Shown here in pieces: positions 16,466 to 32,384 of a DNA stretch of 64,000 nt. The translations under genes were made by a program, and so were the position numbers. A model generated the notes under the pieces. It was not told the origin of the DNA. It saw nothing but the letters and a program-made list of their open reading frames with translations, and ran no database searches. Source of the DNA: an uncultured Psychromonas sp. (lineage in GTDB: Bacteria > Pseudomonadota > Gammaproteobacteria > Enterobacterales > Psychromonadaceae); the NCBI GenBank assembly GCA_963682165.1, contig OY821666.1, positions 580,771 through 644,770 of the forward strand. Direction: 5' to 3'. How positions within the stretch are numbered: the stretch's first letter is position 1; each line of letters starts with the position of its first letter.

Positions 16466-16711
16466 TCATGCTTTAGGTTTGAAAAACAGAATAATGCCGC
16501 TAATAACAATAAACAGTAAAGCTAGACTAAGTATTAACCCTATATATGGAACTATAATTTCCCATGTATGTATAGAAACAAGAAGTTTTTTAATTTCCTT
16601 GCTGTAGATACCCGCTTTGCGAAAAAATAATAAACAACCTGTAACTGCTAGTAAAAGAAGAAATGGCGATAGTGTTATCGCAACTATTCGATGAATTTTT
16701 CTTAGTTTCAT
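16466..16711 (-). CDS. Small PepSY-TM-like membrane protein (MKLRKIHRIVAI...)
   Basis: LRKIHR...TG and IHTW motifs with TM helices; the ATG at 16711 is preferred over the track start. Confidence 0.65.
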   Translation of the reverse strand: MKLRKIHRIVAITLSPFLLLLAVTGCLLFFRKAGIYSKEIKKLLVSIHTWEIIVPYIGLILSLALLFIVISGIILFFKPKA

Positions 16712-16811
16712 AATTCCACTCTTTTCATTTATCGCATTGCTAAGCGGAAAAGAGCCGTTGGATATAATCGCGAAGCGATGGCCAACTGTTGTTTTCCGTT
16801 TAAGCACCTTG

Positions 16812-16867
16812 TTTCAACACCCGAATAAGGTGCAGGCGAACGCGACACCTATTCTTGTTTATTAGCT
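16812..16867 (-). repeat. attC-like hairpin of the IS91-end family (diverged solo copy)
   Basis: Minus strand AGCTAAT-AAACA-AGAATAGGTG...CACCTTATTC-GGGT-GTTGAAA. Confidence 0.75.
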
Positions 16868-16877
16868 GTTTTAAATT

Positions 16878-17141
16878 TTAATAATGATAATGGCAAGATA
16901 TGATCGTTAAATGCGCATCAGTAACTGCATAAACTAATCTATTAGTTTCATCAATTCTACGAGACCAGAAACCAGATAAGTTTTCTTTTAATGATTCTGG
17001 TTTACCAATGCCCTCAAATGGAGATCGTTTAGTATCACTAATTAGCTTATTAATCCTCTTAATTGTTTTTCGATCTTGTCCCTGCCAATAAACATAATCA
17101 CCCCAAGCTTCATCTGTCCACGCAAGTAGCCTAGTCATCAA
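16878..17141 (-). CDS. yoeB: Txe/YoeB family toxin
   Basis: AWGDYVYWQ, PFEGIGKPESLK, WSRRIDETNRLVY and CHYHY. Confidence 0.93.
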   Translation of the reverse strand: MMTRLLAWTDEAWGDYVYWQGQDRKTIKRINKLISDTKRSPFEGIGKPESLKENLSGFWSRRIDETNRLVYAVTDAHLTIISCHYHY

Positions 17142-17385
17142 GGATTTCTCTTTCTGTAGCTCTGCCTAGATGGTACTGATCGATTGATTTTGATAAATGT
17201 GTGGCATTAGCTGGTGACTTAAGTAAATGCACAGTTTCCATTAAACTATTGTAATGATCCATAGACATTACAACCGCATCTTCAGCATCTCTACGTGTTA
17301 TGACTGTATAGTCGATATCATTAACTACATTATCTAAAACTGATTTAAGTCCGTTACGTGCTTCTGTGAACGATACAATACGCAT
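17131..17385 (-). CDS. yefM: Phd/YefM family antitoxin
   Basis: MRIVSFTEARNGLKSVLD, VITRR, YNSLMETVHLLKSPANA. Confidence 0.93.
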   Translation of the reverse strand: MRIVSFTEARNGLKSVLDNVVNDIDYTVITRRDAEDAVVMSMDHYNSLMETVHLLKSPANATHLSKSIDQYHLGRATEREILDD

Positions 17386-17400
17386 AAATTACCTCATTAG

Positions 17401-17448
17401 TTGTACAACAAATAAGACAAGTATAGCTACAAACGCATACATGTGCAA
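17401..17448 (-). promoter_or_regulatory. sigma70 promoter and TGTACA operator of yefM-yoeB
   Basis: TTGCAC-17 nt-TATACT on the minus strand; TTGTACAA palindrome at 17401-17408 matches the YefM-type operator core. Confidence 0.65.
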
Positions 17449-17475
17449 CATTAGGTACAAGTGAAGTTGCGTGAC

Positions 17476-17530
17476 AGCTAACGCCTCAATCACCAGCTTT
17501 AGCAAGTCCGAGTGCATTGACTTGCTGAAC
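17476..17530 (-). repeat. attC site abutting the left end of IS91-like copy 1
   Basis: Minus strand GTTCAGC-AAGTC-AATGCAC...GGTGATT-GAGGC-GTTAGCT. Confidence 0.8.
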
Positions 17531-17611
17531 GAAGCCGCTGCGCGAAAGAAAAACTGCGTTAATACTTTCTTTTATGCACCATTCTCGGTGCGCATAAAAG
17601 CAGTATACGCC

Positions 17612-18661
17612 ATGAACACTTCAAATCAACTGCGCTATGACTTTTTATATCAGCAACATTTAACCAACATTACTTTGCAGGGAATGCGCCCTGCTACCAT
17701 TGATGCTTACTCTCGTGCGCTAAGGCTGGTTGCAGGCTATTTTGCTCGTGCACCCGATGCTTTAGATAAAGCTGATTTGACATTGAACTTTGCAAGCCTA
17801 GTCAAAACACACTCTTGACGAATGTTTACATTAGATCGCAATGGCTTGCAATTCTTTTATCGTCATACCCTAGAAAAAGAGTGGGAATGGTTGAATATTG
17901 CTAAACCACCTCAACTAAAACGTATCCCTGATATTATACCATTCGCATTAATATTATGATCAAAATATGGCGAAGTGGAAAATCAGGTAATTCAAGGCGG
18001 AAGTTGTAGCTAATGGTTGTTCCCTTGGCAAAACTTCCAACACAGAAGTAGCTGATTTTACCAAACTAGATGATCACATATTTGATGCGATTGGTATTAT
18101 TACCTGTGAGCAAATTGGCGCGCTTATCTCTCATACAAAGTCGTTGCGCTACAAGGTCTTCTTTCTTGTTTTATATAGTATGGGCTTACGATTAAGTGAA
18201 GCGCTTGAATTAACTATCAATGAGATAGATAGTGTTACAATGACGGTGCATATTCGTTATGGTAAAGGGGGAAAGATAGGTTGTTACCTTTGCCTCACCG
18301 AACTTTAATCGCACTTCGCTACTATTGGAAAACGCATAAACATCCACACTTATTATTTCCCGGAAAAGGGAAAAACAAACAAGCACCAATGGACAAAGGC
18401 GGCATACAAAAAGCACTGAAAAAAGTCATTGCTGAGTTGGGGGTAAATAAAAATATCAGTCCTCATTCACTGCGACATTGCTTTGCAACACATTTATTAG
18501 AGCAAGGTATTGATTTGCGTTCTCTGCAAGTTTTACTTGGCCACCACAGCCTTAATACGACCGCGCGATATACTGAGCTCACCCCACTTAAGCAAAAAGA
18601 TAATGTCATTGCCCTTGAACAGTTAGCCAATAATATCCCAATAAAATGGGAGGCATTATGA
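17612..18661 (+). pseudogene. Tyrosine recombinase (XerD/IntI-like N-terminus) inactivated by a stop, a MITE and a frameshift
   Basis: Reconstructed GLRLSE, GKGGK(D)[14 protein letters not shown] and TTARY; TGA near 17817; 160-bp insert; -1 frameshift at GGAAAGAT. Confidence 0.88.
17937..18096. mobile_element. 160-bp MITE inside the recombinase gene
   Basis: Inverted ends TACCATTCGCATTAATAT / ATATTTGATGCGATTGGTA; TTA duplicated on both sides. Confidence 0.85.
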
Positions 18662-19725
18662 ATCAATTCATCACTTTACTTAAAGCGCATCAAACTGAGT
18701 TTGAGAAATACTATGGCGCTCGGCTAAATCAAGATATTCGCCGAGCAATGAGTGATATGTTGCACTGTAAAAATGATCGCACTCGTTACACACAATGGCA
18801 TTGTAGCCATTGCCAGCATGACCAACAGCAATTGGCATCCTGCGGAAACCGCAATTGTTCACAGTGCTTGCATCAAACCACCTCAAACTGGCTCGCTCGT
18901 CAAACGGATAAATTATTACCAGTCCATTATTTTATGGTGACATTGACTCTGCCATTTCAACTTAGTTCCCTTGCGATGCAACATCCTAAAGCACTTTATA
19001 AAATAATGTTTCAAGTCAGTGCAGAGCTGTTGAAAGGGTTCGCAGCTCGTCAGCAAAAAGGCGAGTTAGGTTTCACCACCGTGCTACACACTCATAATAG
19101 AAAACGGGATTTACACCATCACTTGCATATTATTATTCCAAGTGGACGTTATGATCCTATCAAAAAGCAGTTTTTTAAAGGTGATAAAGCTTACCTATTT
19201 AATGCGCTTTCATTAGCAAAAGTATGGCGAGCAAAAATGATTGATGCCATTAATAAGAATAAAATACTTGCTATCCCCACTGGATTGCCAAAGCAATGGG
19301 TCGTTGACTGTCGAAAAGTAGGTTTTGGATTGTCTTCATTTCAATATTTGTCGCGATACTTGTATCGAGGCGTATTACTGGGTAAAGACATTATCAATAT
19401 CCACAACGGATTAGTGACATTTCAATATAAAAAAGGTGGTTCAAATATAATCAAAATCCGCACTTTACCCGTACTAAAATTTTTATGGTTGATTTTACAA
19501 CACGTACTGCCGAAAGGCTTACAACGCGTTCGAGATTATGGATTTCTAAGAGGGAATGCAAAAAAATTGCGCTTACAAATTCAATTGATCTTAGGCTTGT
19601 TCGTCAAGTCGCCATCTGTTGAAAATGAAGCAAAAGGTAGCGCCGTTCATATTTGCCCATGCTGTCAACACAGTATGAAATTAGTCGGGTTTCACCGACT
19701 GAAGCTTGCTGAGATTGGCTTGTGA
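18658..19725 (+). CDS. IS91-family Y2 HUH transposase with Zn finger
   Basis: CSHC...[23 protein letters not shown]...HHHLH and YLSRY; ATGA overlap with the recombinase stop. Confidence 0.92.
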
Positions 19726-19907
19726 ATAGTTAGTTTTTGACCGAGATCGAAACCATTAAGGGGATGCCGATAAAGAAATAAAAATACAATAAGCCTTTGA
19801 TATGATTGAGTAATGATCGTATGCAGATAAAACTCGCCTCAAGAAAACACCTAAACTTCCCTCTGATTTCACTATTTACTATATAAGAGGCGATCCTTGA
19901 CGGGCTT

Positions 19908-19962
19908 GTTCAACAACCAGATAAGGTGTCGGCTACGCGACACCTATCCTTGTTTATTATGT
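19908..19962 (-). repeat. attC-like terminal hairpin at the right end of IS91-like copy 1
   Basis: Minus strand ACATAAT-AAACA-AGGATAGGTGTCG...CGACACCTTATCT-GGTT-GTTGAAC. Confidence 0.8.
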
Positions 19963-20017
19963 TGTTTCAGGCATGATATTATGTCTGCTGAGCTTGACTT
20001 TAGGTGTATAGCTACTT

Positions 20018-21871
20018 TTAGTTGTTTGTTTGAAATGAGTCGTAAGTGTCTATAAATTCTCGATGATACTCTTTGGATTGTTCTAGTAATTCTCTATATG
20101 TCTTCACAAAAACTTCACCTGATTGAATGTATGTCTTTTCTTTACTTCTAAAAAGAGGATTTGAAGATTTTTCACCACCAACAACGTAGCAGACTACCCT
20201 TGAAAAGCCGGTTTCAGATGCATACTTTTCAGTCAAGAAAACACCATACACATATGCTTGCTCAAGCGCGTTTGCATCAACCTTATATGTACTTCTTTTA
20301 ATTTCTATAACATATAAAATTTCACCTAGAGCATTGCTACATAAAAAATCAATTCTTCTATCCTTTCCATCCAATTTATCATCGGGGTAAGTTTCCTTGA
20401 GCAGCTTTGAATATGTTACTTCATCTCGAAACTCTAGAATTCTTGGATCAAGAAGCCAAGAAAACTTTTTTAGAAAATTATGTAAAGTAGGTACTTCTTT
20501 AGTATCAGTATTTATATAGTCTTCAAATTTTTTAATTACTTCAACCCGTGAATATGCGAGATCTCTAAATTGCTTTGACTCAATAGATTTCCAGTCATCC
20601 ATTAATTTTAGTAATTGTGGAATCTGTTCAGGCGAAGATATATCGGCAATCTGGGAGGCATAATCTTTAAAAGTTTTATTTTCAAACTTATCTATTACAT
20701 TACCAATAATTTCAGTTGACTCTTGAATATCTATATTTGGATTTTCTAAAATTGGTTCTATTATTTTATTGCTTAGTTCCTTTTCGTAAATTGGGAGCTT
20801 TTCTTGCCATTCAGTAATATCTAGCTTCTGCTCTTCTTTAATAGTCGCTTTCTTTAAATTTCTTCTTTTTGAGCGCCACTCTGAACCAACCTTTTTTATT
20901 ATTTTCTGTAAATACTCTTGTAACTCTTTTGTTTTATCATGCTCCCAATTCAAAGAATGACGATCAGTTGAAATTACATCAATCTCAAATTCATCAATAA
21001 AATCTACTTCGAGATAACCAGTTACATAACTGTGAAATTGATCAGTATCTCTCAAACCATAAAAGTTAGCCGTATTAACTATTTTCCCTCTAGAAGTAAG
21101 GTAAACACCACGCATTTCTGTATCTTTTACTGGGGTTTTAAGTGTGATAACTAAACCTTTTATACTTTCCCAAAACTCATAATCTGAATCATATTTTTCA
21201 TTAGGGAAATCCCAAGTAAACTGGGTATTTAGTTCTGAATATTTAAGTTCATTGGTGACTGAAGTGCTATTGGAATTATTTAATGATAGAGAAACTTTCA
21301 TTTCTCCAAAAATAAGGAATTGTTTGGATAGACTTAATGCTATATTCTCAAGAGAAAAAGATGACTTTCTTCTCATTTTCTTTAGTTTTAACACGGTTCC
21401 TTTAGGTTCTTGTGTACTTAGGTTATGCTCTATTATTTCTGGATTATATGAAGTATCTTTACTCTCTTTAATTTCTATCAAGTCCATTTTAAAGTGATTT
21501 TTTAAACCGTTCTTTATGGAAATAACTTCAATTACATCACATATTCCAAAAACGGATAATTTCCCCAGCCCTTTTTTTCCTATTACCTTTCTTCCTTTAT
21601 CAGTTGTTGTTTTAGTGGCATCCTTTCGCCTGTTTCTACCAATAACTAAGTATTTCTGGTTAAGCTCATCGAATGTCATTCCATCGCCATCATCCGTATA
21701 AATAATTTCTTTTTCAGAGTCCATATCTACAAAATCAATGGATACTATCTCTGCATCAGCATCCCATGAATTCGATACTAATTCGGATAAAACACTAGGC
21801 AATTTTGAATAGAGTGATATTCCTAAGTGTTCAATTGTATTGGGGTCAAATTTTAAAACTAACTCTGCCAT
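20018..21871 (-). CDS. GHKL (MutL/MORC-like) ATPase with a C-terminal PD-(D/E)xK-like nuclease domain
   Basis: ELVSNSWDADA, DDGDGM and GKKGLGKLS GHKL boxes; RIDF...VIEIKR near the C-terminus; overlaps the methyltransferase stop. Confidence 0.8.
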   Translation of the reverse strand: MAELVLKFDPNTIEHLGISLYSKLPSVLSELVSNSWDADAEIVSIDFVDMDSEKEIIYTDDGDGMTFDELNQKYLVIGRNRRKDATKTTTDKGRKVIGKKGLGKLSVFGICDVIEVISIKNGLKNHFKMDLIEIKESKDTSYNPEIIEHNLSTQEPKGTVLKLKKMRRKSSFSLENIALSLSKQFLIFGEMKVSLSLNNSNSTSVTNELKYSELNTQFTWDFPNEKYDSDYEFWESIKGLVITLKTPVKDTEMRGVYLTSRGKIVNTANFYGLRDTDQFHSYVTGYLEVDFIDEFEIDVISTDRHSLNWEHDKTKELQEYLQKIIKKVGSEWRSKRRNLKKATIKEEQKLDITEWQEKLPIYEKELSNKIIEPILENPNIDIQESTEIIGNVIDKFENKTFKDYASQIADISSPEQIPQLLKLMDDWKSIESKQFRDLAYSRVEVIKKFEDYINTDTKEVPTLHNFLKKFSWLLDPRILEFRDEVTYSKLLKETYPDDKLDGKDRRIDFLCSNALGEILYVIEIKRSTYKVDANALEQAYVYGVFLTEKYASETGFSRVVCYVVGGEKSSNPLFRSKEKTYIQSGEVFVKTYRELLEQSKEYHREFIDTYDSFQTNN

Positions 21872-23094
21872 AATAATCCTTTAATTGATTCGGCTATTTC
21901 TAGAGACATTAGAGGTGGAACTGCATTTCCAATTTGTTTAAATGCAGATGTTCTCCCACCTTCAAAAAAGTAATCATCAGGAAAAGATTGAATTCTAGCT
22001 GCTTCCCTTACAGAGAGGGAGCGTACTTGTTTATCATCAGGATAAATATAGTAATGCCCATCTTTTGCAATATGTGCAACCATCGTATGAGAAAGACCTT
22101 TAATATCTACAACTTTAAACCTATCTAAAAATGACTTCTCATTTTTATGAGTTTTTAATCTCTTAGGTAAATCGGGATATTTTAAACGTTCATTGTCATG
22201 AAGCCATTTGTTGATAGCTATCTTATATATTTCCAAATCTCTTGCGTTGTGAGGTCTTGCAATATGTTGAGATACGTAATCCACGCCATTTCTTAGATTA
22301 AATTTATTTAAGTAATCGGTAGTATCTGTCTGGTAAGTTGTAATGTTATTTTGCTCACCTGGAAACAGGGGCTTTAAATCAGAAAAAATGTCTTTCATTG
22401 TGTAACTATGAGTTATTTGCTTAAAATTAGGATATGAAAATTTTATACCTTTTTTCCACCCAATTAAAATTATTCTTCTTCGTTTTTGTAAAACACCAAA
22501 ATCTTCAGATTTTTGTATTGAATAATCTAAAAAATAGCCAATTCTTTTAAAATATGCCTGCATATTTTTAAAGTAACTTCCATCGTTTGCAGAAATCAAA
22601 CCTAACACATTTTCAAAAACGAAAACTTTTGGTGTATATCTTTTCAAAAATTTCGCATACTCTTTATAGAGAACATTTCTAGGGTCGTTCTCCATATTGT
22701 TTTTATCTCTAGACCGACCAACCAAAGAGTATGCCTGACAAGGGGGACCTCCAATTATCAAATCAACATCATTGGCATACCTATCAATTTGATCGAAAAT
22801 ACCTTTATTATTTTCTTCACCTATCGAAATATTGATGATCGAATCAGAAAAATATTCCCCATAATTTTTTACAAAGTTTAATCTATCTATATTTCCTAGA
22901 ATATAGTCATGGTATGCTTTTAAGTTACCTTTCTTTTTTAATGAATGATAAATGAGTCTTGTTTCAAGCGTTTTACATGCATTAAGGTCGACCTCTACAT
23001 GAGCCAAAGGAGTATACCCAGCATTCATAAATCCCTCAGACAGTCCACCCGCCCCTGAGAATAAATCTAAATATTTTAATTTCTTATTAGCCAC
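21859..23094 (-). CDS. DNA (cytosine-5) methyltransferase
   Basis: DLFSGAGG, GGPPCQAYS, ENV, QKRRR, REAARIQSFPD and QIGNAVPP. Confidence 0.95.
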   Translation of the reverse strand: MANKKLKYLDLFSGAGGLSEGFMNAGYTPLAHVEVDLNACKTLETRLIYHSLKKKGNLKAYHDYILGNIDRLNFVKNYGEYFSDSIINISIGEENNKGIFDQIDRYANDVDLIIGGPPCQAYSLVGRSRDKNNMENDPRNVLYKEYAKFLKRYTPKVFVFENVLGLISANDGSYFKNMQAYFKRIGYFLDYSIQKSEDFGVLQKRRRIILIGWKKGIKFSYPNFKQITHSYTMKDIFSDLKPLFPGEQNNITTYQTDTTDYLNKFNLRNGVDYVSQHIARPHNARDLEIYKIAINKWLHDNERLKYPDLPKRLKTHKNEKSFLDRFKVVDIKGLSHTMVAHIAKDGHYYIYPDDKQVRSLSVREAARIQSFPDDYFFEGGRTSAFKQIGNAVPPLMSLEIAESIKGLLWQS

Positions 23095-23173
23095 AATCCC
23101 CCCTGTTTCCGAACGCTCTATACCCGTATGCTATTTTAGCATTTTTCAGTAAATAGTACGACGAGTGTTTTAC

Positions 23174-23231
23174 ACATAACGCTGCATTCACCATGCGAGC
23201 GCAGCGAGTCCGGTGCAATGCTTTGTTGAAC
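23174..23231 (-). repeat. attC site abutting the left end of IS91-like copy 2
   Basis: Minus strand GTTCAAC-AAAGC-ATTGCAC...GTGAAT-GCAGC-GTTATGT. Confidence 0.88.
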
Positions 23232-23316
23232 GAAGCCGCTGCGCGAAAGAAAAACAAACTGCGTTAATACTTTCTTTTATGCACCATTCTCGGTGCGCAT
23301 AAAAGGAGTATACGCC

Positions 23317-24366
23317 ATGAACACTTCAGATCAACTTCGCTATGACTTTTTATATCAGCAACATTTAACCAATCTCACTCTGCAGGGAATGCGCCCTGCA
23401 ACCATTGATGGTTACTCACGGGCAGTGAGGCGGATTGCAGGCTATTTTGAGCGCTCTCCCGATGCACTAGATAAAGCTGATTTGAAATCATACTTTTCAA
23501 GCTTAATCAAAACACACTCTTGGAGTACGGTAAAACTTGATCGTAACGGCTTGCAATTCTTTTATCGTCATACCCTAGAAAAAGAGTGGGAATGGTTGAA
23601 TATAGTTAAACCCCCTCAACTAAAACGTATCCCTGATATTATACCATTCGCATTAATATTATGATCAAAATCTGGCGAAGTGGAAAATCAGGTAATTCAA
23701 GGCGGAAGTTGTAGCTAATGGTTGTTCCCTTGGCAAAACTTACAACACAGAAGTAGCTGATTTTACCAAGCTAGATGAGCACATATTTGATGCGATTGGT
23801 ATTATTACCTGTGAGCAAATTGGCGCGCTTATTTCCCATACAAAGTCGTTGCGCTACAAGATCTTCTTTCTTGTTTTATATAGTATGGGCTTACGATTAA
23901 GTGAAGCGCTTGAATTAACTATCAATGAGATAGATAGTGTTACAATGACGGTGCATATTCGTGATGGTAAAGGGGGAAAGATAGGTTATTACCCTTGCCT
24001 CACCGAACTTTAATCGCACTTCGCTATTATTGGAAAACGCATAAACATCGACACTTATTATTTCCCGGAAAAGGCAAAAATAAACAAGCACCAATGGACA
24101 AAGGAGGTATACAAAAAGCACTGAAAAAAGTCATTGCTGATTTGGGAATAAATAAAAATATCAGCCCTCATTCACTGCGCCATTGCTTTGCAACACATTT
24201 ATTAGAGCAAGGTATTGATTTGCGTTCTCTGCAAGTTTTACTTGGCCACCACAGCCTTAATACCACCTCGCTATATACTGAGCTCACTCCACTTAAGCAA
24301 AAAGATAACGTCATTGCCCTTGAACAGTTAGCCAATAATATCCCAATAAAATGGGAGGCATTATGA
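23317..24366 (+). pseudogene. Tyrosine recombinase with the same MITE (23642-23801) and the same -1 frameshift as copy 1
   Basis: ORFs 23293-23664 and 23995-24366 plus the intervening frame reconstruct a full recombinase. Confidence 0.88.
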
Positions 24367-25430
24367 ATCAATTCATCACTTTACTTAAAGCGCATCAAAC
24401 TGAGTTTGAGAAATACTATGGCGCTCGGCTAAATCAAGATATTCGCCGAGCAATGAGTGATATGTTGCACTGTAAAAATGATCGCACTCGTTACACACAA
24501 TGGCATTGTAGCCATTGCCAGCATGACCAACAGCAATTGGCATCCTGCGGAAACCGCAATTGTTCACAGTGCTTGCATCAAACCACCTCAAACTGGCTCG
24601 CTCGTCAAACGGATAAATTATTACCAGTCCATTATTTTATGCTGACATTGACTCTGCCATTTCAACTTAGATCCCTTGCGATGCAACATCCTAAAGCGCT
24701 TTATAAAATAATGTTTCAAGTCAGTGCTGAGCTGTTGAAAGGGTTCGCAGCTCGTCAGCAAAAAGGCGAGTTAGGTTTCACCACCGTGCTACACACTCAC
24801 AATAGAAAACGAGATTTACACCCTCACTTACATATTATTGTTCCAAGTGGACGTTATGATCCTATCAAAAAGCAGTTTTTTAAAGGAGATAAAGCTTACC
24901 TATTTAATGCGCTTTCATTAGCAAAAGTATGGCGAGCAAAAATGATTGATGCCATTAATAAAAGTAAAATACTTACTATCCCCACTGGGTTGCCAAAGAA
25001 ATGGGTTGTTGACTGTCGAAAAGTAGGTTTTGGCTTGTCTTCATTTCAATATTTGTCGCGATACTTGTATCGAGGCGTATTACTGGGTAAAGATATTATC
25101 AATATCCACAACGGATTAGTGACATTTCAATATAAAAAAGGAGGCTCAAATATAATCGAAACTCGAACTTTACCCGTACTCAAATTTTTATGGTTGATTT
25201 TACAACACGTACTGCCGAAAGGCTTACAACGCGTTCGAGATTATGGATTTCTAAGTGGGAATGCAAAAAAATTGCGCTTACAAATTCAATTAATATTAGG
25301 CTTGTTCGTCAAGCCGCCATCTGTTGAAAATGAAGCAAAAGGTCACGCCGTTCATATTTTCCCATGCTGTCAACACAGTATGAAATTAGTCGGATTTCAT
25401 CGACTGAAGCTTTCTGAGACTGGCTTGTGA
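24363..25430 (+). CDS. IS91-family Y2 HUH transposase
   Basis: About 15 aa differences from the copy 1 protein (counted from the ORF track); LHTH...HPHLH and YLSRY. Confidence 0.92.
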
Positions 25431-25612
25431 ATTGTTAGTTTTTGACCTAGATCGAAACCATTAAGGGGATGCCGATAAAGAAATAAAAATACAATAAGCC
25501 TTTGATATAATTGAGTAATGATCGTATGCAGATAAACCTCGCCTCAAGAAAACACCTAAACTTCCCTCTGATTTCACTATTTACTATATAAGAAGCGATC
25601 CTTGACGGGCTT

Positions 25613-25667
25613 GTTCAACAACCAGATAAGGTGTCGGCTACGCGACACCTATCCTTGTTTATTATAT
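25613..25667 (-). repeat. attC-like terminal hairpin at the right end of IS91-like copy 2
   Basis: Identical to 19908-19957, then TATAT instead of TATGT. Confidence 0.8.
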
Positions 25668-25672
25668 TTTTG

Positions 25673-26206
25673 TTATTGACCAAACAATTGCTCAACTGTT
25701 TTCATAGGGAGAAACATACGGATACGCCCATTATGTTCACACAATACCTCGAAACCATATTTAGCATAAAAGCTTTGCGCGGAATCAGTTAAACAATCAA
25801 CCACAACCGCATAAGCTCTCATATGATGATTTACTTCCCATAAGTAATTTAACGCCTTAATTAAGCTTATTTTTCCTAACCCGCTCCCATGAAATTCTTT
25901 ATGTACTGCTAACTGAGCCAACAAAAATACAGGGATAGGGTAACGTGGTAATTTTTTAGCCATGTTAACTGGTAATGTTTCTCGAGATATTGAGCTTGGA
26001 GCAACACTATAAAATGAACAAATTGGGAATTTCTTATTTAACAATGGCATTTTTGAAGGCAAAACCATGGTTCTACTGATGCCTGCTTGCATATGTTTTG
26101 CTGCTTGAATTTTTATAAACACATTCAATTCATGTTCACCACAATCAAATGAATTACGATCGTGAACTGATTTTTTTAGCTCTTCAAATTCATTTGCCCA
26201 ACTCAT
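25673..26206 (-). CDS. GNAT acetyltransferase toxin (AtaT/TacT type)
   Basis: HDRNSFDCGEHELN, PIPVFLLAQLAVH, GSGLG and FYAKYGF. Confidence 0.9.
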   Translation of the reverse strand: MSWANEFEELKKSVHDRNSFDCGEHELNVFIKIQAAKHMQAGISRTMVLPSKMPLLNKKFPICSFYSVAPSSISRETLPVNMAKKLPRYPIPVFLLAQLAVHKEFHGSGLGKISLIKALNYLWEVNHHMRAYAVVVDCLTDSAQSFYAKYGFEVLCEHNGRIRMFLPMKTVEQLFGQ

Positions 26207-26472
26207 TTAAAACCGCCCTCTTTTGTAAATGCAGCAGCTTCAAATAGAGCTTTACTTGGACTTTCAGCTTTATCACAAGCGTCAATAAATTTATCAAAAA
26301 CATTGGCTTCGACTGTAATAATTTCGTGTTCCGCAATTACATGTGAAGCGTCTTCATCCATTAAACGAACAACGTATTCAGTGAGGCTTTTTAAGCCTAA
26401 AAGAGCAGAAGCTTTTTCTGCTTTAGCTTTGATTTCTTCATCAAGCCTAATATCTAAACGTGCAGTAGCCAT
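26203..26472 (-). CDS. DUF1778 (RHH) antitoxin
   Basis: ARLDIRL...KAEKASALLG...LTEYV; overlaps the GNAT start. Confidence 0.9.
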   Translation of the reverse strand: MATARLDIRLDEEIKAKAEKASALLGLKSLTEYVVRLMDEDASHVIAEHEIITVEANVFDKFIDACDKAESPSKALFEAAAFTKEGGFK

Positions 26473-26487
26473 AACAACCTCCAGTTG

Positions 26488-26542
26488 TACGGAGTCATTC
26501 CGTAATAAAACAAAGTATAAACCTTAAATAAAATTATAACAA
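26488..26542 (-). promoter_or_regulatory. Promoter and palindromic operator of the DUF1778-GNAT TA
   Basis: TTGTTA-17 nt-TATACT; TACGGA-N5-TCCGTA palindrome at 26488-26504. Confidence 0.6.
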
Positions 26543-26573
26543 CATGTACAGCAACTTTACGGATTAAGAAAAA

Positions 26574-26915
26574 ATATAACAGTATTATTAGTAGGAAACT
26601 TTCCTTCTAATTCCTAGAAAAGTTTCCGCCTATCTTCATTTTAGTATTTTAATTTTTTCTATCAATTGCTATCAAAAACAATATGTTAGCGGCATTTATA
26701 GGTTTTGACTGAGATAAAATCAGGAAAGTTTCCTATATAATTGCCAGTTAGTAGCAAACCTTCCGGCTAATTCCGCATAAAGTTTCTGTCTAATTGCAAG
26801 CTACTCTTTTTCTTTTATATGTCAATTGTATATAAAACAAACTATTAGCTAAGTTTATGGAATGTGAAGAAGATCAAATCAGCAAAGTATCCAGCTAATT
26901 ACGCATTAGTTAGAA
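26574..26915 (-). repeat. Long tandem attC-family repeat, copy D (about 180-bp attC plus a diverged 169-bp second unit)
   Basis: Arms ATTATATAGGAAACTTTCC / GGAAAGTTTCCTACTAAT with R'' ACTAAC and R' GTTATAT; the second unit aligns with the first. Confidence 0.8.
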
Positions 26916-26932
26916 AGGATGCACTACTTTTT

Positions 26933-27546
26933 TCTCATTCCCACGCTCCCGCGTGGGAATGCATACCTAACTTCATCACTGCGCACATATCTCTAGCAAG
27001 CCATTTTCACCATCATAATTTCTAGCACTGAAATATCGCCATTGCTCTGCTTTATCGAGATAACCACGTTTTGCATGGTTATTGTGGATATACTCAACCG
27101 TAAGGGCATGATTTCATTATTTTCAATTAACACAGGGGCGCACCTTCTTGGCAAAACTGATAAGATTTATCGTGTTTATGCGCTTTTTTATAAAAAGCCA
27201 ACTGCTGTAAAATTTGTTCAATATTATTTTTGGGTAAATACTCAATAAGTAACCTTGCTGTGTATGAATTATAGCGAGCAATATCTCTACCTAATGCTTT
27301 GTTTTGAACAACTAAATGACAGTGGTTTTTTAAAATGACATAGGCATACACTGTTAAACCCTCTTTAGATAAATGGCGTAGCGAGTCAAGCAAAATAGCA
27401 ACAGTATCTGGATGGGTAAATACAGGTATTGAGTGCAGTATGGTTAGTGTGATGAAATGGGGATCCTCTGGGTTGGTTATTTTGTATCGACTTCTACTCA
27501 TTGTTTAGCTTGCGTATGCATCCCCACACGGGAGAGTGGGAACGAG
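26933..27546 (-). pseudogene. REP-flanked RAYT remnant, copy 2
   Basis: ORF 27127-27501 with HFITLT and YAYVILKNHCH; REPs at 26933-26967 and 27514-27546. Confidence 0.82.
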
Positions 27547-27554
27547 CAAAATCT

Positions 27555-27677
27555 GAGAGACTTTGCTCACTTCGCGATGGTTGGATCAAGCTGCATTATC
27601 CTGAGTGAAACGCCCTGTGCGGATCCGCATGCAGGATCTTGTGGGGGCTGATGGTTAAATACCCTCGGCTACAAGAT
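27555..27677 (+). mobile_element. Class C group II intron 3' remnant inserted in the HigBA cassette attC
   Basis: DV/DVI ending CTACAAGAT, followed by TAGAGCG, the remainder of the R'' complementary to core GTTAGAG at 29156-29162. Confidence 0.82.
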
Positions 27678-27684
27678 TAGAGCG

Positions 27685-28770
27685 TTATACTGTCCACTTA
27701 TACCTAATTCTATGATGGTGGTTTGTATGTGGTAACTTTTTATCATGCTGTAATCTACCAGTTACAATACCTGGAAAGATTCCAATTTTTTTTGAAAAGT
27801 CTTTGATTGATGAACTAGAAAAATCACAACCTTTGACAAATTTATTGTATGCATCAAAAGGTATTAGAGACTTTTGAGAAAAAATATCTGCTTCTTGCTC
27901 TTGTTTCTGATATTGCAGATCAAGTTTACCGTTCTCTAAGAAAGTAACTCTTTTATCATGAAGTAAAATATGACCTATTTCATGAAATAAACTAAACCAG
28001 AATATATCTGACCACGCACCACGCAGTGACATCATAATTACAGCTTTATTCTTACCAATCCAAAAGGTTGCACCTGTTGTATATGATTTTGCAAACGTTG
28101 GCACTAGGGCTAGAACAACACCACAATCAGCTAAAGTACTTTTAATTTTCTCAATTAACTCGTTTGGCTCAATGACATTTGTAAGCTCTCTAAGTTTAGG
28201 AATACTTTGCTCAAGTTTTCCTTTATTAAATTGAGCTACTTCTCTTTTGCCCGCAATAACGTGGCCAGCTCTAAGCCATGTAGCTAACGATTCATGAGAG
28301 ACTGTGGTCTTTTCTTGTTGCCTAAACGCGGGAGCAAATTCTTTTACTGTTCGGATATTTTTTAAAGAGGAAACCCCAAAAAACTTTCTTAATTCAACAA
28401 CTTTTTTTAACTTATCTCTAGTTTTCTCAACCAAATTAAGTTTGCTTAATTGTAAATATGGAAACTTATCAATTAAGTTTTCTTCAAGTTTAATGTCTTC
28501 CTGCTGTTGCTGTTTAGCTAAAATCAAGCGGAATTCAGTTTCAAGGTTACTCCATAACTGTGCGGAAACACCTAAAACTTGCTCTAGTTGTAATGCTGTT
28601 TCAGGAGTTATTGCTTTGTCACCTTTAACTATCTCATTAATAGCCTGTGGGGGGCGTCCCATTCTTCTTGCTAGCTCTGCTTGACTAATTTCTAGATCTT
28701 CTAACACTTCTTCCAAGTATTCACCTGGGGGAATTGCCATATCAGAAATAAATGCTGTTTCAGTCATCAT
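27685..28770 (-). CDS. higA: HigA antitoxin fused to an ImmA/IrrE (DUF955) metallopeptidase domain
   Basis: PPGEYL, SQAELARRMG and INEIVKG HTH motifs; FSLFHEIGHILLH HExxH. Confidence 0.9.
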   Translation of the reverse strand: MMTETAFISDMAIPPGEYLEEVLEDLEISQAELARRMGRPPQAINEIVKGDKAITPETALQLEQVLGVSAQLWSNLETEFRLILAKQQQQEDIKLEENLIDKFPYLQLSKLNLVEKTRDKLKKVVELRKFFGVSSLKNIRTVKEFAPAFRQQEKTTVSHESLATWLRAGHVIAGKREVAQFNKGKLEQSIPKLRELTNVIEPNELIEKIKSTLADCGVVLALVPTFAKSYTTGATFWIGKNKAVIMMSLRGAWSDIFWFSLFHEIGHILLHDKRVTFLENGKLDLQYQKQEQEADIFSQKSLIPFDAYNKFVKGCDFSSSSIKDFSKKIGIFPGIVTGRLQHDKKLPHTNHHHRIRYKWTV

Positions 28771-29062
28771 AATGCTTACTCACTTCTTCAATTAAGGCTA
28801 TATCTAAACAGTCACCTGCAACTGTAAAGATCAACCTATAAAAACCTGTCAATTTGACTGCATACTGTCCTTTTCTATTACCTTTTAAATGGTGGCATCT
28901 GAGTCCTGGCAGTGACATAACCTCATCTAGGTTTTTAGCTGCCTTTATTAAATTAACTCTTTGAATATACTTTTTGGCAATTTGGCTCCCAAACTCTTTT
29001 TGAGCTTGCTTGCCTTGGCAATAGCATTTCTCAAGCTTTTTAGTCTTGAAATTTACAATCAA
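28760..29062 (-). CDS. higB: HigB/RelE-family toxin
   Basis: FKTKKLEK, LPGLRCHHLKGNRKGQYAVKL and YRLIF. Confidence 0.9.
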   Translation of the reverse strand: MIVNFKTKKLEKCYCQGKQAQKEFGSQIAKKYIQRVNLIKAAKNLDEVMSLPGLRCHHLKGNRKGQYAVKLTGFYRLIFTVAGDCLDIALIEEVSKHYDD

Positions 29063-29100
29063 ACTTATATCCTAAGTATAGTACTGACAAAACGATAACG

Positions 29101-29145
29101 TTCACCTTTTGGGTGAATGCTACAATAGGAAAGTTGAACTGTCAA
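29101..29145 (-). promoter_or_regulatory. higBA promoter and operator
   Basis: TTGACA-17 nt-TAGCAT; TTCACC-N5-GGTGAA palindrome at 29101-29117. Confidence 0.65.
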
Positions 29146-29195
29146 GCATTATACGCTCTAACGAGCCTGTAGAATTATTGGTTTTATTTATTTGT

Positions 29196-29490
29196 GCACG
29201 CCCAACATGGGTCTGAACTAATGAGGTGAAAGTACTCTGTAGGAAGGTCTCCATCCGTAGCGAGTATATGGTTATTAGGTGCTAATTACTCGCAATGGTA
29301 AGGGCTTACCCGCGAGGTTTGATCCTAAGGAAGCCAGCCGCAAAACTGCGAGCTGATGAATAAAAACATCATATGAGGCTGGAGGCGAGTTGGCACAAGA
29401 TGACGAAGCTATGCGATCTAACGGCCACCGTAAATGATGCAGTCGCTTCGCGAAAGTTCATGCCCTTATCTGGGGAGATCTGCTTAACAC
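29196..29490 (+). mobile_element. Class C group II intron 5' remnant (domain I region)
   Basis: TTGT|GCACGCCCAACATGGG start, resembling the GTGCGCCC..CATGGG 5' end and TTGT target of attC-targeting IIC introns; GC-rich structured non-coding stretch. Confidence 0.7.
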
Positions 29491-29504
29491 GTGATTGGTA
29501 AATA

Positions 29505-29699
29505 ACCAGTAAGGCATGGATCTAAATGGCGTAGCGAGTCCAGCAAAATAGCAACAGTATCTGGATGGGTAAATACAGGTATCGAGTGCAGTATGGTTAG
29601 TGTGATGAAATGTGGTGCTCTGGGTTGGTTATTTTGTATCGACTTTTTTCCATTGTTTAGCTTGCGTATGCATTCCCACGCAGGAGCGTGGGAACGAGA
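29505..29699 (-). pseudogene. Third RAYT 5' fragment with REP
   Basis: PHFITLTILHSIPVFTHPDTVAILLDSLRHL; REP at 29666-29699. Confidence 0.75.
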
Positions 29700-29700
29700 A

Positions 29701-30111
29701 AAGGGGGAATGCAAAAAAATTGCGGTTACAAATTCAATTAATCTTAGGCTTGTTCGTCAAGCAGCCATCTGTTGAAAATGAGGAAAAAGGTCGCGCCGTT
29801 CATATTTGCCCATGCTGTCAACATAGTATGAAATTAGTCGGGTTTCACCGACTGAAGCTTTCTGAGATTGGCTTGTGAATAGTTAGTTTTTGACCGAGAT
29901 CGAAACCATTAAGGGGATGCCGATAAATAAATAAAAATACAATAAGCCTGTGATATGATTGAGTAATGATCGTATGCAGATAAAACTCGCCTCAAGAAAA
30001 CATCTAAACTTCCCTCTGATTTCACTATTTACTATAATAAGAAGCGATCCTTGACGGGCTTGTTCAACAACCAGATAAGGTGTCGGCTACGCGACACCTA
30101 TCCTTGTTTAT
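29701..30111 (+). mobile_element. 3' fragment of the IS91-like element, including its right-end hairpin (30062-30116)
   Basis: [19 protein letters not shown]...CPCCQH tail and 3' non-coding region shared with copies 1 and 2. Confidence 0.85.
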
Positions 30112-30118
30112 TAAGCCT

Positions 30119-30823
30119 CTATACCTTTCCATACCTGTATGACTTACCCTTTTTAAGGACATACTCTTCTAGAACTTTGTTTGAAAGTATTTCTTGCTTG
30201 TTTTTACAAAAGACACGAGCATGTTCTACTAGTTCTATAAATTTTTCTATTTGCTTAATACTCCAAGAATCTGGCTGCAACAATTCAGTACACATTCTTG
30301 GGAGATTTCCACGATTCTTCTTGGGGTCTAGAAGAATGATGATCTTTGAGTACTCTATTTTTTTCGCACCACTATGTGCTGCAAAATTATTTCTATACGA
30401 CATAGCTTCTTCGTGCGTTTCATGAAACTCTTCGCCTAAATTTACTTTTTCAAGCTTTACACGTCGACCTTCGCAGCTAGTGAAGCACTTTCCATATATA
30501 GTTAACGCAGCGACGAAAAGCCCCTTTATAGTATTGAATATTTCTCGATTTTCAAGGTTAACGATATTTTTAGTCGCATTAACATGGAGCTCATCTTGGC
30601 TTGCAAGTGTAATCACTGAATTTAGCCAGATTTTACAATTACGTAAGTCCTTTTCAATAAGTGTATATGCCGCGAATGCGTTCGCCTTTGGTGTATCAAG
30701 GACCACTCTATGAGCCCTGTTTCTCCTGTAGAAATACCTATTATAGAATTTGGACTCTTTAGGCAAAACAACCGTTTCAAACGTCCAGTTCGGATCATCC
30801 TCAAATAGCTTTTTTCTTGGCAT
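30119..30823 (-). CDS. Putative HEPN-domain cassette protein
   Basis: RNNFAAH (Rx4H-type) motif in a helical protein; bounded by complementary GTTAAGC/GCTTAAT sites. Confidence 0.65.
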   Translation of the reverse strand: MPRKKLFEDDPNWTFETVVLPKESKFYNRYFYRRNRAHRVVLDTPKANAFAAYTLIEKDLRNCKIWLNSVITLASQDELHVNATKNIVNLENREIFNTIKGLFVAALTIYGKCFTSCEGRRVKLEKVNLGEEFHETHEEAMSYRNNFAAHSGAKKIEYSKIIILLDPKKNRGNLPRMCTELLQPDSWSIKQIEKFIELVEHARVFCKNKQEILSNKVLEEYVLKKGKSYRYGKV

Positions 30824-30837
30824 GAAATTCCTTGTAG

Positions 30838-31179
30838 GCTTAACAGTATTATTAGTAGGAAACTTTCCTTCTAATTCCTAGAAAAGTTTCCGCCTATCTT
30901 CATTTCAGTATTTTAATTTTTCTATAAATTGCTATCAAAAACAATATGTTAGCGATATTTATAGGTTTTGACTGAGATAAAATAAGGGAAGCTTCCTATG
31001 TAATTGCCAGTTTAGTAGCAAACCTTCCTGCTAATTCCGCAGAAAGTTTTAGTCTAATTGCAAGCTACTCTTTTTCTTTTATATGTCAATTGTATATAAA
31101 ACAAACTATTAGCTAAGTTTATGGAATGTGAAGAAGATCAAATCAGCAAAGTATCCGCCTGATTACGCATTAGTTAGGA
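30838..31179 (-). repeat. Long tandem attC-family repeat, copy E (array-proximal)
   Basis: Near-identical to copy D. Confidence 0.8.
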
Positions 31180-31490
31180 AGGAGGCACTACTTTTTACCC
31201 ACAAGAGATGCAATAATGGAGAAATATAAACAACTCACTTGTGAACAAAGATAGCCATTTACTCGTATCAGAAAACAGCTACGATGCAAACAAAAATAAT
31301 ATCATGACTGGAAGTAAATCAATCCTGCATTTCTAGATAACTAAAACGCAATGCTGAGTATAGAACTTTAGCATGTCAAAACATTGAGTATAAAATAGGG
31401 TGCGGATTGGCCTGTTTTGGAGGATAACAACTTGGGTCAACAAGATACTAACAAAGCACTTATTTACACCTTAAAGTATAACTTGCAAGC

Positions 31491-32384
31491 ATGAATATTT
31501 TATTTGCAATGATCCCCGCTTTTTTGTGGGGAACAACGTATGCAGCTACTCAGTATGCCTTGCCTGAGTGGCCGCCATTGCTGCTAGGCGCGCTAAGGGC
31601 TCTTCCTGCTGGATTGCTTTTACTTCTACTTAAACCTTCGTTTCCTAAGCGTGAAGATTGGAAAAACCTATGCGTTCTTGGTAGTATTAATATCGCGGTG
31701 TTTTTTGCTTTTATTTTTATTATGGCATTAACCTTACCGTCAGCCATTTCTGGAGTTGGAATGCTTTCGGTTCCTACTTTTGCAATGTTATATCATTGGC
31801 TGGTAAATAAACAAAAACCATCATTAATACAATTGCTGTGCGGCTTGTTACTTATATCGCTAGCGTGGATTTTATTTGATCCAGGAGCAATGACCTTAAA
31901 CTTGTTCGGATTACTGGCAATGCTAGGAGCAATTATGTCTCTTGTTATTGGCAGTTGTCTAACCAAAAGTTTAGCCTCTAAAATTCATTGGTGGACGGTA
32001 TTAACTTGGCAGTTAATTATAGGAGGGAGCATTTTAGGCGTCTGTGCAGGCCTACATGCAATCGTTAATAAGCAGCTGTACATAGATGTTTTTAAAAATA
32101 TAAGCCTATTAAATATCAGTGGTGTGTTGTGGTTGATTATTTTTACGACTTCGATTGCTTATGGACTCTATGTTTGGTTACTGCAAAGAATGAGCGTTGT
32201 TGATTTTACCTTTGGCGGTATCGCCAATCCAATTGCAGGTATTTTATCTGGATATATTTTAATGAATGATGAGTTTTCTGCTGAGCAATACTTTTTAATG
32301 GGCCTGATGATCGTCACGAGTTTGCTTCCGCAATTGATTATTATCTTTAAAAATAAAATAGCAATGTGCAGGCTCGGCGAATAA
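31491..32384 (+). CDS. EamA/DMT family transporter
   Basis: LWGTTY, RALPAGLLL, two 5-TM repeats, NPIAGILSG. Confidence 0.88.
   Translation: MNILFAMIPAFLWGTTYAATQYALPEWPPLLLGALRALPAGLLLLLLKPSFPKREDWKNLCVLGSINIAVFFAFIFIMALTLPSAISGVGMLSVPTFAMLYHWLVNKQKPSLIQLLCGLLLISLAWILFDPGAMTLNLFGLLAMLGAIMSLVIGSCLTKSLASKIHWWTVLTWQLIIGGSILGVCAGLHAIVNKQLYIDVFKNISLLNISGVLWLIIFTTSIAYGLYVWLLQRMSVVDFTFGGIANPIAGILSGYILMNDEFSAEQYFLMGLMIVTSLLPQLIIIFKNKIAMCRLGE

Follow-up and report, generated by a model that had tools for sequence, protein, structure and literature searches.

Insertion sequences of the IS91 family (IS91, IS801, and IS1294) encode a rolling-circle Y2/HUH transposase, make no target duplication, and have two dissimilar ends that carry subterminal palindromes but lack long terminal inverted repeats. 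Some members carry an integrase gene, among them ISShvi3, ISSod25, ISSde12, and ISAzo26. Here, we describe two copies of such an element, copy A and copy B, in a stretch of 64,000 nucleotides (nt) from an uncultured Psychromonas sp. (the window, positions 580,771 to 644,770 of a single 4.17-Mb contig). Each copy consists of a broken tyrosine recombinase gene (int), a transposase gene (tnpA), and a right-end hairpin, and each abuts an integron attC site. The original prediction for this locus held that the two int genes share the same inserted miniature inverted-repeat transposable element (MITE) and the same frameshift, so that the element multiplied after its recombinase died.

In IS91 itself, the stop of an upstream gene, orf121, overlaps the start of tnpA, and a CTTG/GTTC tetranucleotide adjoins the oriIS end, on the tnpA-distal side (PMC13181058). 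ISShvi3 adjoins an attC in a Shewanella integron and is said to yield a new gene cassette structure (PMC9229058). That remark was the sole relevant one in our literature search, which returned no account of the mechanism of integrase-carrying IS91 members, of an attC-like junction, of the role of Int, or of autonomous and nonautonomous lineages.

The element described here resembles the IS91 family in its transposase, in the lack of a target duplication, and in the make-up of its ends, and it also has GAAC by a small palindrome at its gene-proximal end and CTTG beside one end. The orf121 overlap is matched by an overlap of int with tnpA, but the upstream gene encodes a tyrosine recombinase of 295 amino acids (aa) and not Orf121. 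Apparently also unlike in IS91, with the IS91 strand convention taken from its description, CTTG lies at the int-proximal end. Further differences are that TTA... invariably follows the tnpA-distal end and that attC crossovers serve as the insertion points. Its int precedes tnpA and overlaps it, which places the element in the integrase-carrying, ISShvi3-like subgroup of IS91 (PMC9229058); it shares the gene pair and the marine gammaproteobacterial hosts of the ISShvi3 type, a likeness drawn from description.

Integron cassettes offer a second comparison. Following the G of an upstream attC, the element opens with TTGAAC; it ends in relatives with ...G before TTA and has R''/R' 7-mers with L''/L' arms, as cassettes do; it differs in having two mobility genes and about 23 copies and in ending here with A and not G. 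IS1111-attC elements and group IIC-attC introns also target the attC sites of cassette arrays, and a group II intron remnant lies in this same array. These, however, use a DEDD transposase or a reverse transcriptase, insert within the attC, and show no cassette mimicry. Lastly, trans-mobilized nonautonomous transposons and insertion sequences under concerted evolution show the same mix of dead copies with autonomous masters, mosaics, and failure of the four-gamete test that we report below.

Copies A and B are probably nonautonomous members of a family with autonomous copies

Our reading, to which we assign a probability of roughly 0.7, is that A and B are nonautonomous, Int-dead members of a family of about 23 IS91-type copies residing in attC sites, that their common lesions were inherited along with the tract in which they lie, that both copies are mosaics, and that the lesions spread by mobilization in trans, by gene conversion, or by both. 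The MITE in int (termed M1 here) would have arisen once and the 1-nt deletion behind the frameshift probably once, both being passed on with the carrying tract. Repeated gene conversion would later have made A and B mosaics rather than daughters of one duplication. Dead copies could have been mobilized in trans by Int and TnpA of four autonomous copies, possibly with help from the host integron integrase IntI, or resident copies could have been converted by the lesion-bearing tract. Neither route calls for transposition without the recombinase, nor does either demonstrate it.

In a self-comparison of the window, the two copies appear as direct repeats at 17501 to 19967 and 23203 to 25671, with 95.0% identity over 2471 nt. 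Element ends were set from the 13 full genomic copies and from relatives. Copy A spans 17525 to 19956 on the forward strand, after the G of its host attC, and copy B spans 23226 to 25661 on the same strand, its ends being placed by the conserved termini. The int pseudogenes lie at 17612 to 18661 (A) and 23317 to 24366 (B) on the forward strand and were recognized by Pfam matches on their fragments (Phage_int_SAM_4 and Phage_integrase) and, in A, by comparison to an intact 295-aa paralog. Each overlaps a downstream tnpA of 359 codons, at 18646 to 19725 in A and at 24351 to 25430 in B, also on the forward strand.

A census of the whole genome by BLAST and end motifs found 13 full-length and about 10 partial copies. 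Copies other than A and B are named here by genomic position. In four of them (254k, 297k, 423k, and 2327k), both genes are open and the MITE is absent; these four are 99.6 to 100% identical to one another. A fifth intact int is found in the copy at 287k. Five loci besides A and B thus hold an intact recombinase gene, and at four of these the whole element is intact; this was one of the two findings that the original prediction had itself named as fatal to it. In addition, an intact host IntI with no stops is encoded at genomic positions 431,762 to 432,706 (L001; 446.8 bits, above the family cutoff), and a fragment of IntI (positions 1 to 116) lies at 260770 to 261117.

M1 occupies the same int position at 10 loci, and the 1-nt deletion is restricted to three copies (236k, A, and B). 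In five copies at five sites (236k, 243k, 287k, 439k, and 3989k), tnpA is split by M2, a further 160-nt member of this MITE family that is likewise flanked by a TTA duplication and is about 65% identical to M1. M2 lies at element position ~1611, just before the HPHLH motif, and four of these five copies also carry M1. The target sequences of M1 and M2 are alike (TGATA-TTA and GAGAT-TTA, or GAT-N-TTA).

Several further observations were made in the course of this census. The element copies cluster in three cassette-rich zones, at 229 to 300 kb, 418 to 442 kb, and 597 to 611 kb. The 297k and 2327k copies (295912 to 299952 and 2327052 to 2331090) have in common not only the element but also 1.76 kb of upstream cassettes, starting from an attC, at 99.8% identity; this identity stops exactly at the right end of the element, beyond which the flanks are unrelated, a pattern compatible with one-ended rolling-circle transposition or with a multicassette recombination event. 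In the 418k copy (418992 to 422974), tnpA is interrupted by an insert of 1667 nt and int by one of 51 nt. At the right end of the 3989k copy (3991700 to 3991760), a tandem insert of two 20-nt units (ATATGGACTCCCTATTTCT..) lies between CCTT and GTTTATTA, and one public locus (L135) has the same ATATGGACTCCCTAT after CCTT.

Lesions common to the two copies and the differences between them

M1 lies at 17937 to 18096 in the int of A, flanked by TTA at 17934 to 17936 and 18097 to 18099, and at 23642 to 23801 in the int of B, likewise flanked by TTA. In both copies it is 160 nt long, with terminal inverted repeats of ~26 nt (TACCATTCGC...GCGATTGGTA) and a TTA duplication. The intact paralog from another part of the genome has ...KRIPDIITCEQ... 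here, and M1 therefore sits exactly between PDI and ITC. The site, length, and target duplication are therefore as first described, but the two insertions are not identical, differing at 4 of 163 positions (97.5% alike). M1 is short and noncoding, has inverted repeats and a target duplication, and belongs to a multicopy family of about 30 genomic members by nhmmer, all of which are the marks of a MITE. Across the whole genome, no free-standing copy of M1 was found and other members of its family were at most 85% identical to it; one near-identical match, at 2432k, also covers adjoining int (element positions 436 to 597) and looks like an element fragment.

The frameshift was also correctly noted. 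A run of four A's is reduced to three in the sequence encoding GKGGKDR, at 18272 to 18274 in A and at 23977 to 23979 in B (forward strand), giving the same -1 shift; A and B read GGTAAAGGGGGAAAGATAGG and 10 other genomic copies read GGGGGAAAAGA, a loss of 1 nt. Copy A has a third lesion of its own, a TGG>TGA stop at 17816 to 17818 (forward strand), where copy B and the intact copies have TGG. Judged by these lesions, the recombinase is dead in both A and B.

The original prediction took both transposases as full length with about 15 differences between them. Both indeed have 359 codons, with exactly 15 residue differences (36 nt differences), and both match Pfam PF14319 and PF04986 (Zn_Tnp_IS91 and Y2_Tnp) and contain the YLSRY motif. 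However, each carries changes at positions that do not vary among nine relatives. Copy A has R107S and, next to the HUH histidines, P158H; copy B has R302S and, within the C-terminal CPxC motif, C337F; the change PD266-267LG is common to the two.

Public sequencing runs were consulted as Logan contigs, in which repeats are collapsed and minor variants dropped. A contig from another organism's run (X11, 23434 to 24065) carries the allele with both M1 and the frameshift free of gaps; since the allele thus occurs in a second organism, an assembly error is an unlikely source of the frameshift. In run X8, from a different organism, a contig bridges the left junction of copy A (16900 to 17640) with nine mismatches and an AAAC that is absent from copy A, and so insertion at that attC predates the split of the two organisms.

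The recombinase is conserved together with the transposase

The intact Int of 295 aa scored equally on the XerA, XerC, XerD, and IntI models, below the cutoff of each. On the IntI model TIGR02249 it reached 157.2 bits against a cutoff of 265, with XerA, XerC, and XerD scoring the same or higher, which places it outside IntI. The closest solved structure is that of a XerC-like/XerA protein (4a8e). Aligned with the host IntI (33% identity), Int falls short by ~40 residues in the IntI-specific segment that separates patches II and III, an absence that had been anticipated. It is a simple Xer/IntI-type tyrosine recombinase without the IntI-specific insertion. The intact paralog of TnpA scores 329.7 bits on NF033538 (cutoff, 125).

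In the intact copy, the 3' end of int overlaps the start of tnpA, and the same synteny is seen in relatives down to 48% identity. Homologs of Int with 65 to 85% identity are common in Psychromonas, Vibrio, Photobacterium, Colwellia, Moritella, and Pseudoalteromonas, often on contigs of ~2.3 kb. IntI was present in 9 of 11 related genomes with the element and in 14 of 29 without it, an association too weak, among genomes that are related by descent, to be relied on.

Mosaic structure and gene conversion among copies

The copies of this family are mosaics. Among 103 biallelic informative sites, 48% of pairs were incompatible by the four-gamete test, and every combination of M1 with M2 and of the frameshift with M2 occurs. 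A statistic similar to the pairwise homoplasy index was 0.40, compared with 0.48 ± 0.014 under permutation (0 of 2000 permutations as low), with neighboring sites being less incompatible. In the 5' part of int, copy B shares 99.0% identity with the intact copies but only 88.3% with A; in the 3' part, copy A is closest to 236k (99.0%) and 96.2% identical to B. Approximately unbiased (AU) tests rejected a clade of A and B on either side of M1 (P = 0.0006 for the upstream part, P = 0.0015 for the downstream part), and upstream of M1 they also rejected monophyly of the M1 carriers (P = 0.005) and of the frameshift carriers (P = 4e-5). A and B are not sister copies.

A different picture was obtained from tnpA, in which the seven M1 carriers form one clade (Shimodaira-Hasegawa-like approximate likelihood ratio test [SH-aLRT], 95.6). 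Variants located 17 to 33 nt to the left of M1 are found in 5 of 7 carriers and in none of the noncarriers, and are progressively lost in 283k, B, 243k, and 236k. Such graded loss is what would be left by conversion tracts that halt at a heterologous insert. Gene conversion among the copies is thus pervasive, and homogenization of lesions, the second finding named beforehand as fatal to the original prediction, could have taken place.

Most divergence between A and B is older than the common MITE

Both the dating of the MITE and the comparison of selection on int and tnpA had been proposed as checks on the original prediction, and both were run. At four-fold sites of int and tnpA, A and B differ at 30 of 232 (12.9%), compared with 4 of 163 positions (2.5%) in M1 (binomial P = 2.6e-6). 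Right beside M1, four-fold differences between them are 9 of 33 (27%) and 9 of 68 (13%) on either side. Over all 21 pairs of carriers, the corresponding values are 7.6% at four-fold sites and 1.9% in M1.

The ratio of nonsynonymous to synonymous differences per site (pN/pS) for int between A and B was 0.21 (37 synonymous and 27 nonsynonymous differences), and therefore these differences arose during the functional life of the gene. Comparable values were obtained among the dead copies (0.22) and between dead and live copies (0.19), and the ratio of nonsynonymous to synonymous substitution rates (dN/dS) for tnpA was about 0.2. Only private changes in int look relaxed, with 17 synonymous and 27 nonsynonymous. 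From the contrast between four-fold sites and M1 and from the pN/pS values, it follows that most of the divergence between A and B accumulated while the genes were functional and predates the coalescence of M1.

Two histories fit these data. In one, the lesion tract was copied into resident copies that had already diverged; in the other, a dead lineage bearing M1 radiated, after which sequence from other copies replaced its flanks. Gene conversion has a part in both, and neither shows movement independent of Int. The claim that the duplication postdates loss of the recombinase therefore survives in part: with 10 M1 loci, the tnpA clade, and a private flanking haplotype, a recombinase-dead lineage probably did multiply, but A and B do not descend from a single such duplication, and most of their divergence dates from the era in which int was functional.

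Weighing the explanations

Several observations sit uneasily with our reading of A and B as trans-mobilized or converted members of a mixed family. The roughly fourfold lower divergence of M1 relative to the coding backbone fits the two histories above equally well. Movement of a copy was not seen directly, the public contigs being collapsed. The divergent 5' segment of int in A has no donor left in the genome (best match, 92%). The frameshift stands on differing nearby haplotypes in A and B and could be recurrent. Moreover, the transposases of A and B, altered as they are at conserved sites, may be inactive.

Among the alternatives, pure gene conversion survives best, although we think it unlikely. 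Here, independently inserted and once-functional copies would each have received the tract with the MITE and the frameshift, and no dead copy would ever have moved. The island of similarity at M1 (2.5% against 27% and 13% at the adjoining four-fold sites), the selected look of the int differences between dead copies, the mosaicism and four-gamete failures, and the old insertion of copy A implied by the bridged left junction all speak for it. However, it requires about nine separate conversions of a 163-nt heterology, and the carriers form one clade over about 1 kb of tnpA, a better fit to a lineage; later overwriting of flanks is equally able to explain the data.

The original prediction, in which the element multiplied after the death of its recombinase so that Int is dispensable and mobility is driven by the Y2 transposase alone or by host IntI, is in our view decidedly improbable. 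It draws on the presence of M1 copies at 10 different sites in one tnpA clade, on purifying selection on tnpA, and on the intact IntI. A parallel comes from a related genome (G006), where three copies of a related element (C1:96215-96913, C1:130950-131648, and C2:336932-337630; L026, L036, and L076) have one TAA in int in common and an open tnpA; the fourth copy of that genome has an intact int, so that its pattern parallels the present one. Against this, five intact int genes and an intact IntI are available in trans and gene conversion is pervasive, so that mobility independent of Int does not follow. Copies dead for tnpA, and copies dead for both genes, are likewise found at several sites, and the spread of a lesion is therefore uninformative on the need for the gene: by the same logic, the five copies with M2 in tnpA would mean that the element also spread after its transposase had died. 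Nor does dispensability sit well with a pN/pS of about 0.2 for int and its synteny with tnpA in relatives, or with junctions that obey the G↓TT rule of tyrosine recombinase recombination at attC (the arrow marks the crossover) and apparently not the tnpA-distal CTTG/GTTC rule of IS91 (PMC13181058).

Recurrent independent lesions, with a MITE hot spot in int and repeated slippage of the A-run, are very improbable. M1 and M2 do have similar targets, and the frameshift falls in a G5A4 run, on differing haplotypes in A and B. However, identical site and orientation of M1 at 10 loci, the want of a free-standing M1 (with the 2432k match looking like an element fragment and other family members at most 85% identical), and the carrier-only variants 17 to 33 nt away all speak against recurrence. 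Most remote of all is that collapsed or mispolished repeats created the common lesions in assembly: the frameshift is a homopolymer indel, and at that place public contigs from the source organism have just the unshifted form, which is the majority variant, but those contigs also miss copy-specific substitutions and so are blind to minor variants, the contig from another organism's run has both lesions, every copy has unique flanks, and a 163-nt MITE is no indel error.

Element ends and their likeness to attC

The host attC abutting copy A lies at 17477 to 17524 on the forward strand (GCTAACGCC...CATTGACTTG), and the element begins at its G↓TT crossover; that abutting copy B lies at 23172 to 23225, also on the forward strand (ACACATAACGC...GCAATGCTTTG). 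All genomic copies start with TTGAACGAAGCCGC and finish with ...GGGCTTGTTCAAC...GGTGTCG-loop-CGACACCTATCCTTGTTTA, and in most the left flank is a recognizable attC (YTAACGCC...hairpin...TTG). Empty attC sites of the same type read CTTG↓TTAGC and occupied sites read ...CTTG↓TTGAAC...TTTA↓TTA..., from which it follows that the element starts exactly at the integron crossover G↓TT and without duplication. No repeat flanks the element when occupied and empty sites are compared, and thus there is no target site duplication. CTTG stands beside the int-proximal end in 6 of 13 copies here and in 18 of 21 and 8 of 11 public copies.

The attC-like hairpins of the right ends, at 19902 to 19956 in A and 25607 to 25661 in B (forward strand), have in A an R'' of GTTCAAC, a stem of GGTGTCG/CGACACC, and the terminal sequence ...CCTTGTTTA. 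At the left end, GAAC is followed by a GCCGC..GCGGC palindrome. Of 110 distinct public right ends, 86 have TTTG, and beyond the element comes TTA and then G, T, or A in 99 of 99 public copies. The last element base is A in every copy here (19956, 25661, 30110, and others) and is the G of the G↓TT crossover in 86 of 99 public copies; two public lineages also end in A. Coupled stem variants were seen among the 110 right ends (GA..TC in 45, AG..CC in 38, and a handful of mixed forms).

When the ends are joined, as in a circle, R'' (GTTCAAC) and R' (GTTGAAC) surround an imperfect hairpin of ~55 nt with a bulged base, and the eight elements that were folded take the form R''-L''-L'-R'. Of the complete public elements with an R'' of GTCCAAC, all (7 of 7) retain TTGAAC at the left end, giving a mismatch on the top strand and a G·T pair on the bottom strand. 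In anatomy, the joined ends are those of an integron cassette, and the junctions bear the marks that a tyrosine recombinase would leave at attC-type sites. Shifting the boundaries by 2 nt (GAAC...TTTGTT) to suit the IS91 tetranucleotide rule makes the left end a GTTC-type terIS and leaves the flank of the other end without a consensus, and was rejected as the sole mechanism.

This junction signature, together with the conservation of both genes under purifying selection, leads us to a tentative model of a hybrid between an insertion sequence and a cassette, which we regard as possible but doubtful. TnpA would peel off a single-stranded circle, the joined ends of which would fold as an attC mimic on the bottom strand, and Int or host IntI would recombine this folded junction into the G↓TT of chromosomal attC sites. 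Copies dead for int, for tnpA, or for both would be natural nonautonomous derivatives moved in trans. What moves the dead copies is an inference, as is the joining of a Y2-made circle to an attC by a tyrosine recombinase, whereas the copy census, the lesions, the mosaicism, the signs of selection, and the anatomy of the junctions were observed. A and B, though dead, keep intact ends, so they stay substrates in trans.

Genomic neighborhood

A third, 5'-truncated copy consisting of the last ~410 nt lies at 29701 to 30110 on the forward strand with its right end intact; its match in the self-comparison spans 29701 to 30113. Just upstream, at 29306 to 29464, is a group II intron domain (D1-D4-3; Rfam RF02001, 86.9 bits), which was the sole match in an Rfam scan of 16500 to 31500, in which the element itself gave none. 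Between A and B, on the minus strand at 20018 to 23094, are genes for a 617-aa HATPase_c_3 (GHKL ATPase) protein and for a C5 cytosine methyltransferase of 411 aa; their ends overlap, and they likely form a two-gene cassette. Also, a lone sequence at 16808 to 16871, by a yefM-type antitoxin cassette, matches the hairpin region of the element (its final ~65 nt) at 83% identity, and no element body adjoins it.

Implications

Were the original prediction true, an IS91-type element with a resident recombinase would not need that recombinase. The view across the whole genome removes this conclusion, as shared lesions in a recombining multicopy family with autonomous members are ordinary; nonautonomous copies and concerted evolution are an ordinary phenomenon. 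What the locus does offer is a single genome in which autonomous copies of an attC-targeting relative of IS91 occur together with copies dead for int, for tnpA, or for both, tagged by MITEs and beside an intact IntI. The role of the recombinase in this subgroup of IS91 is thereby directly testable, with a bearing on the parasitism of cassette arrays and possibly on the origin of new attC sites.

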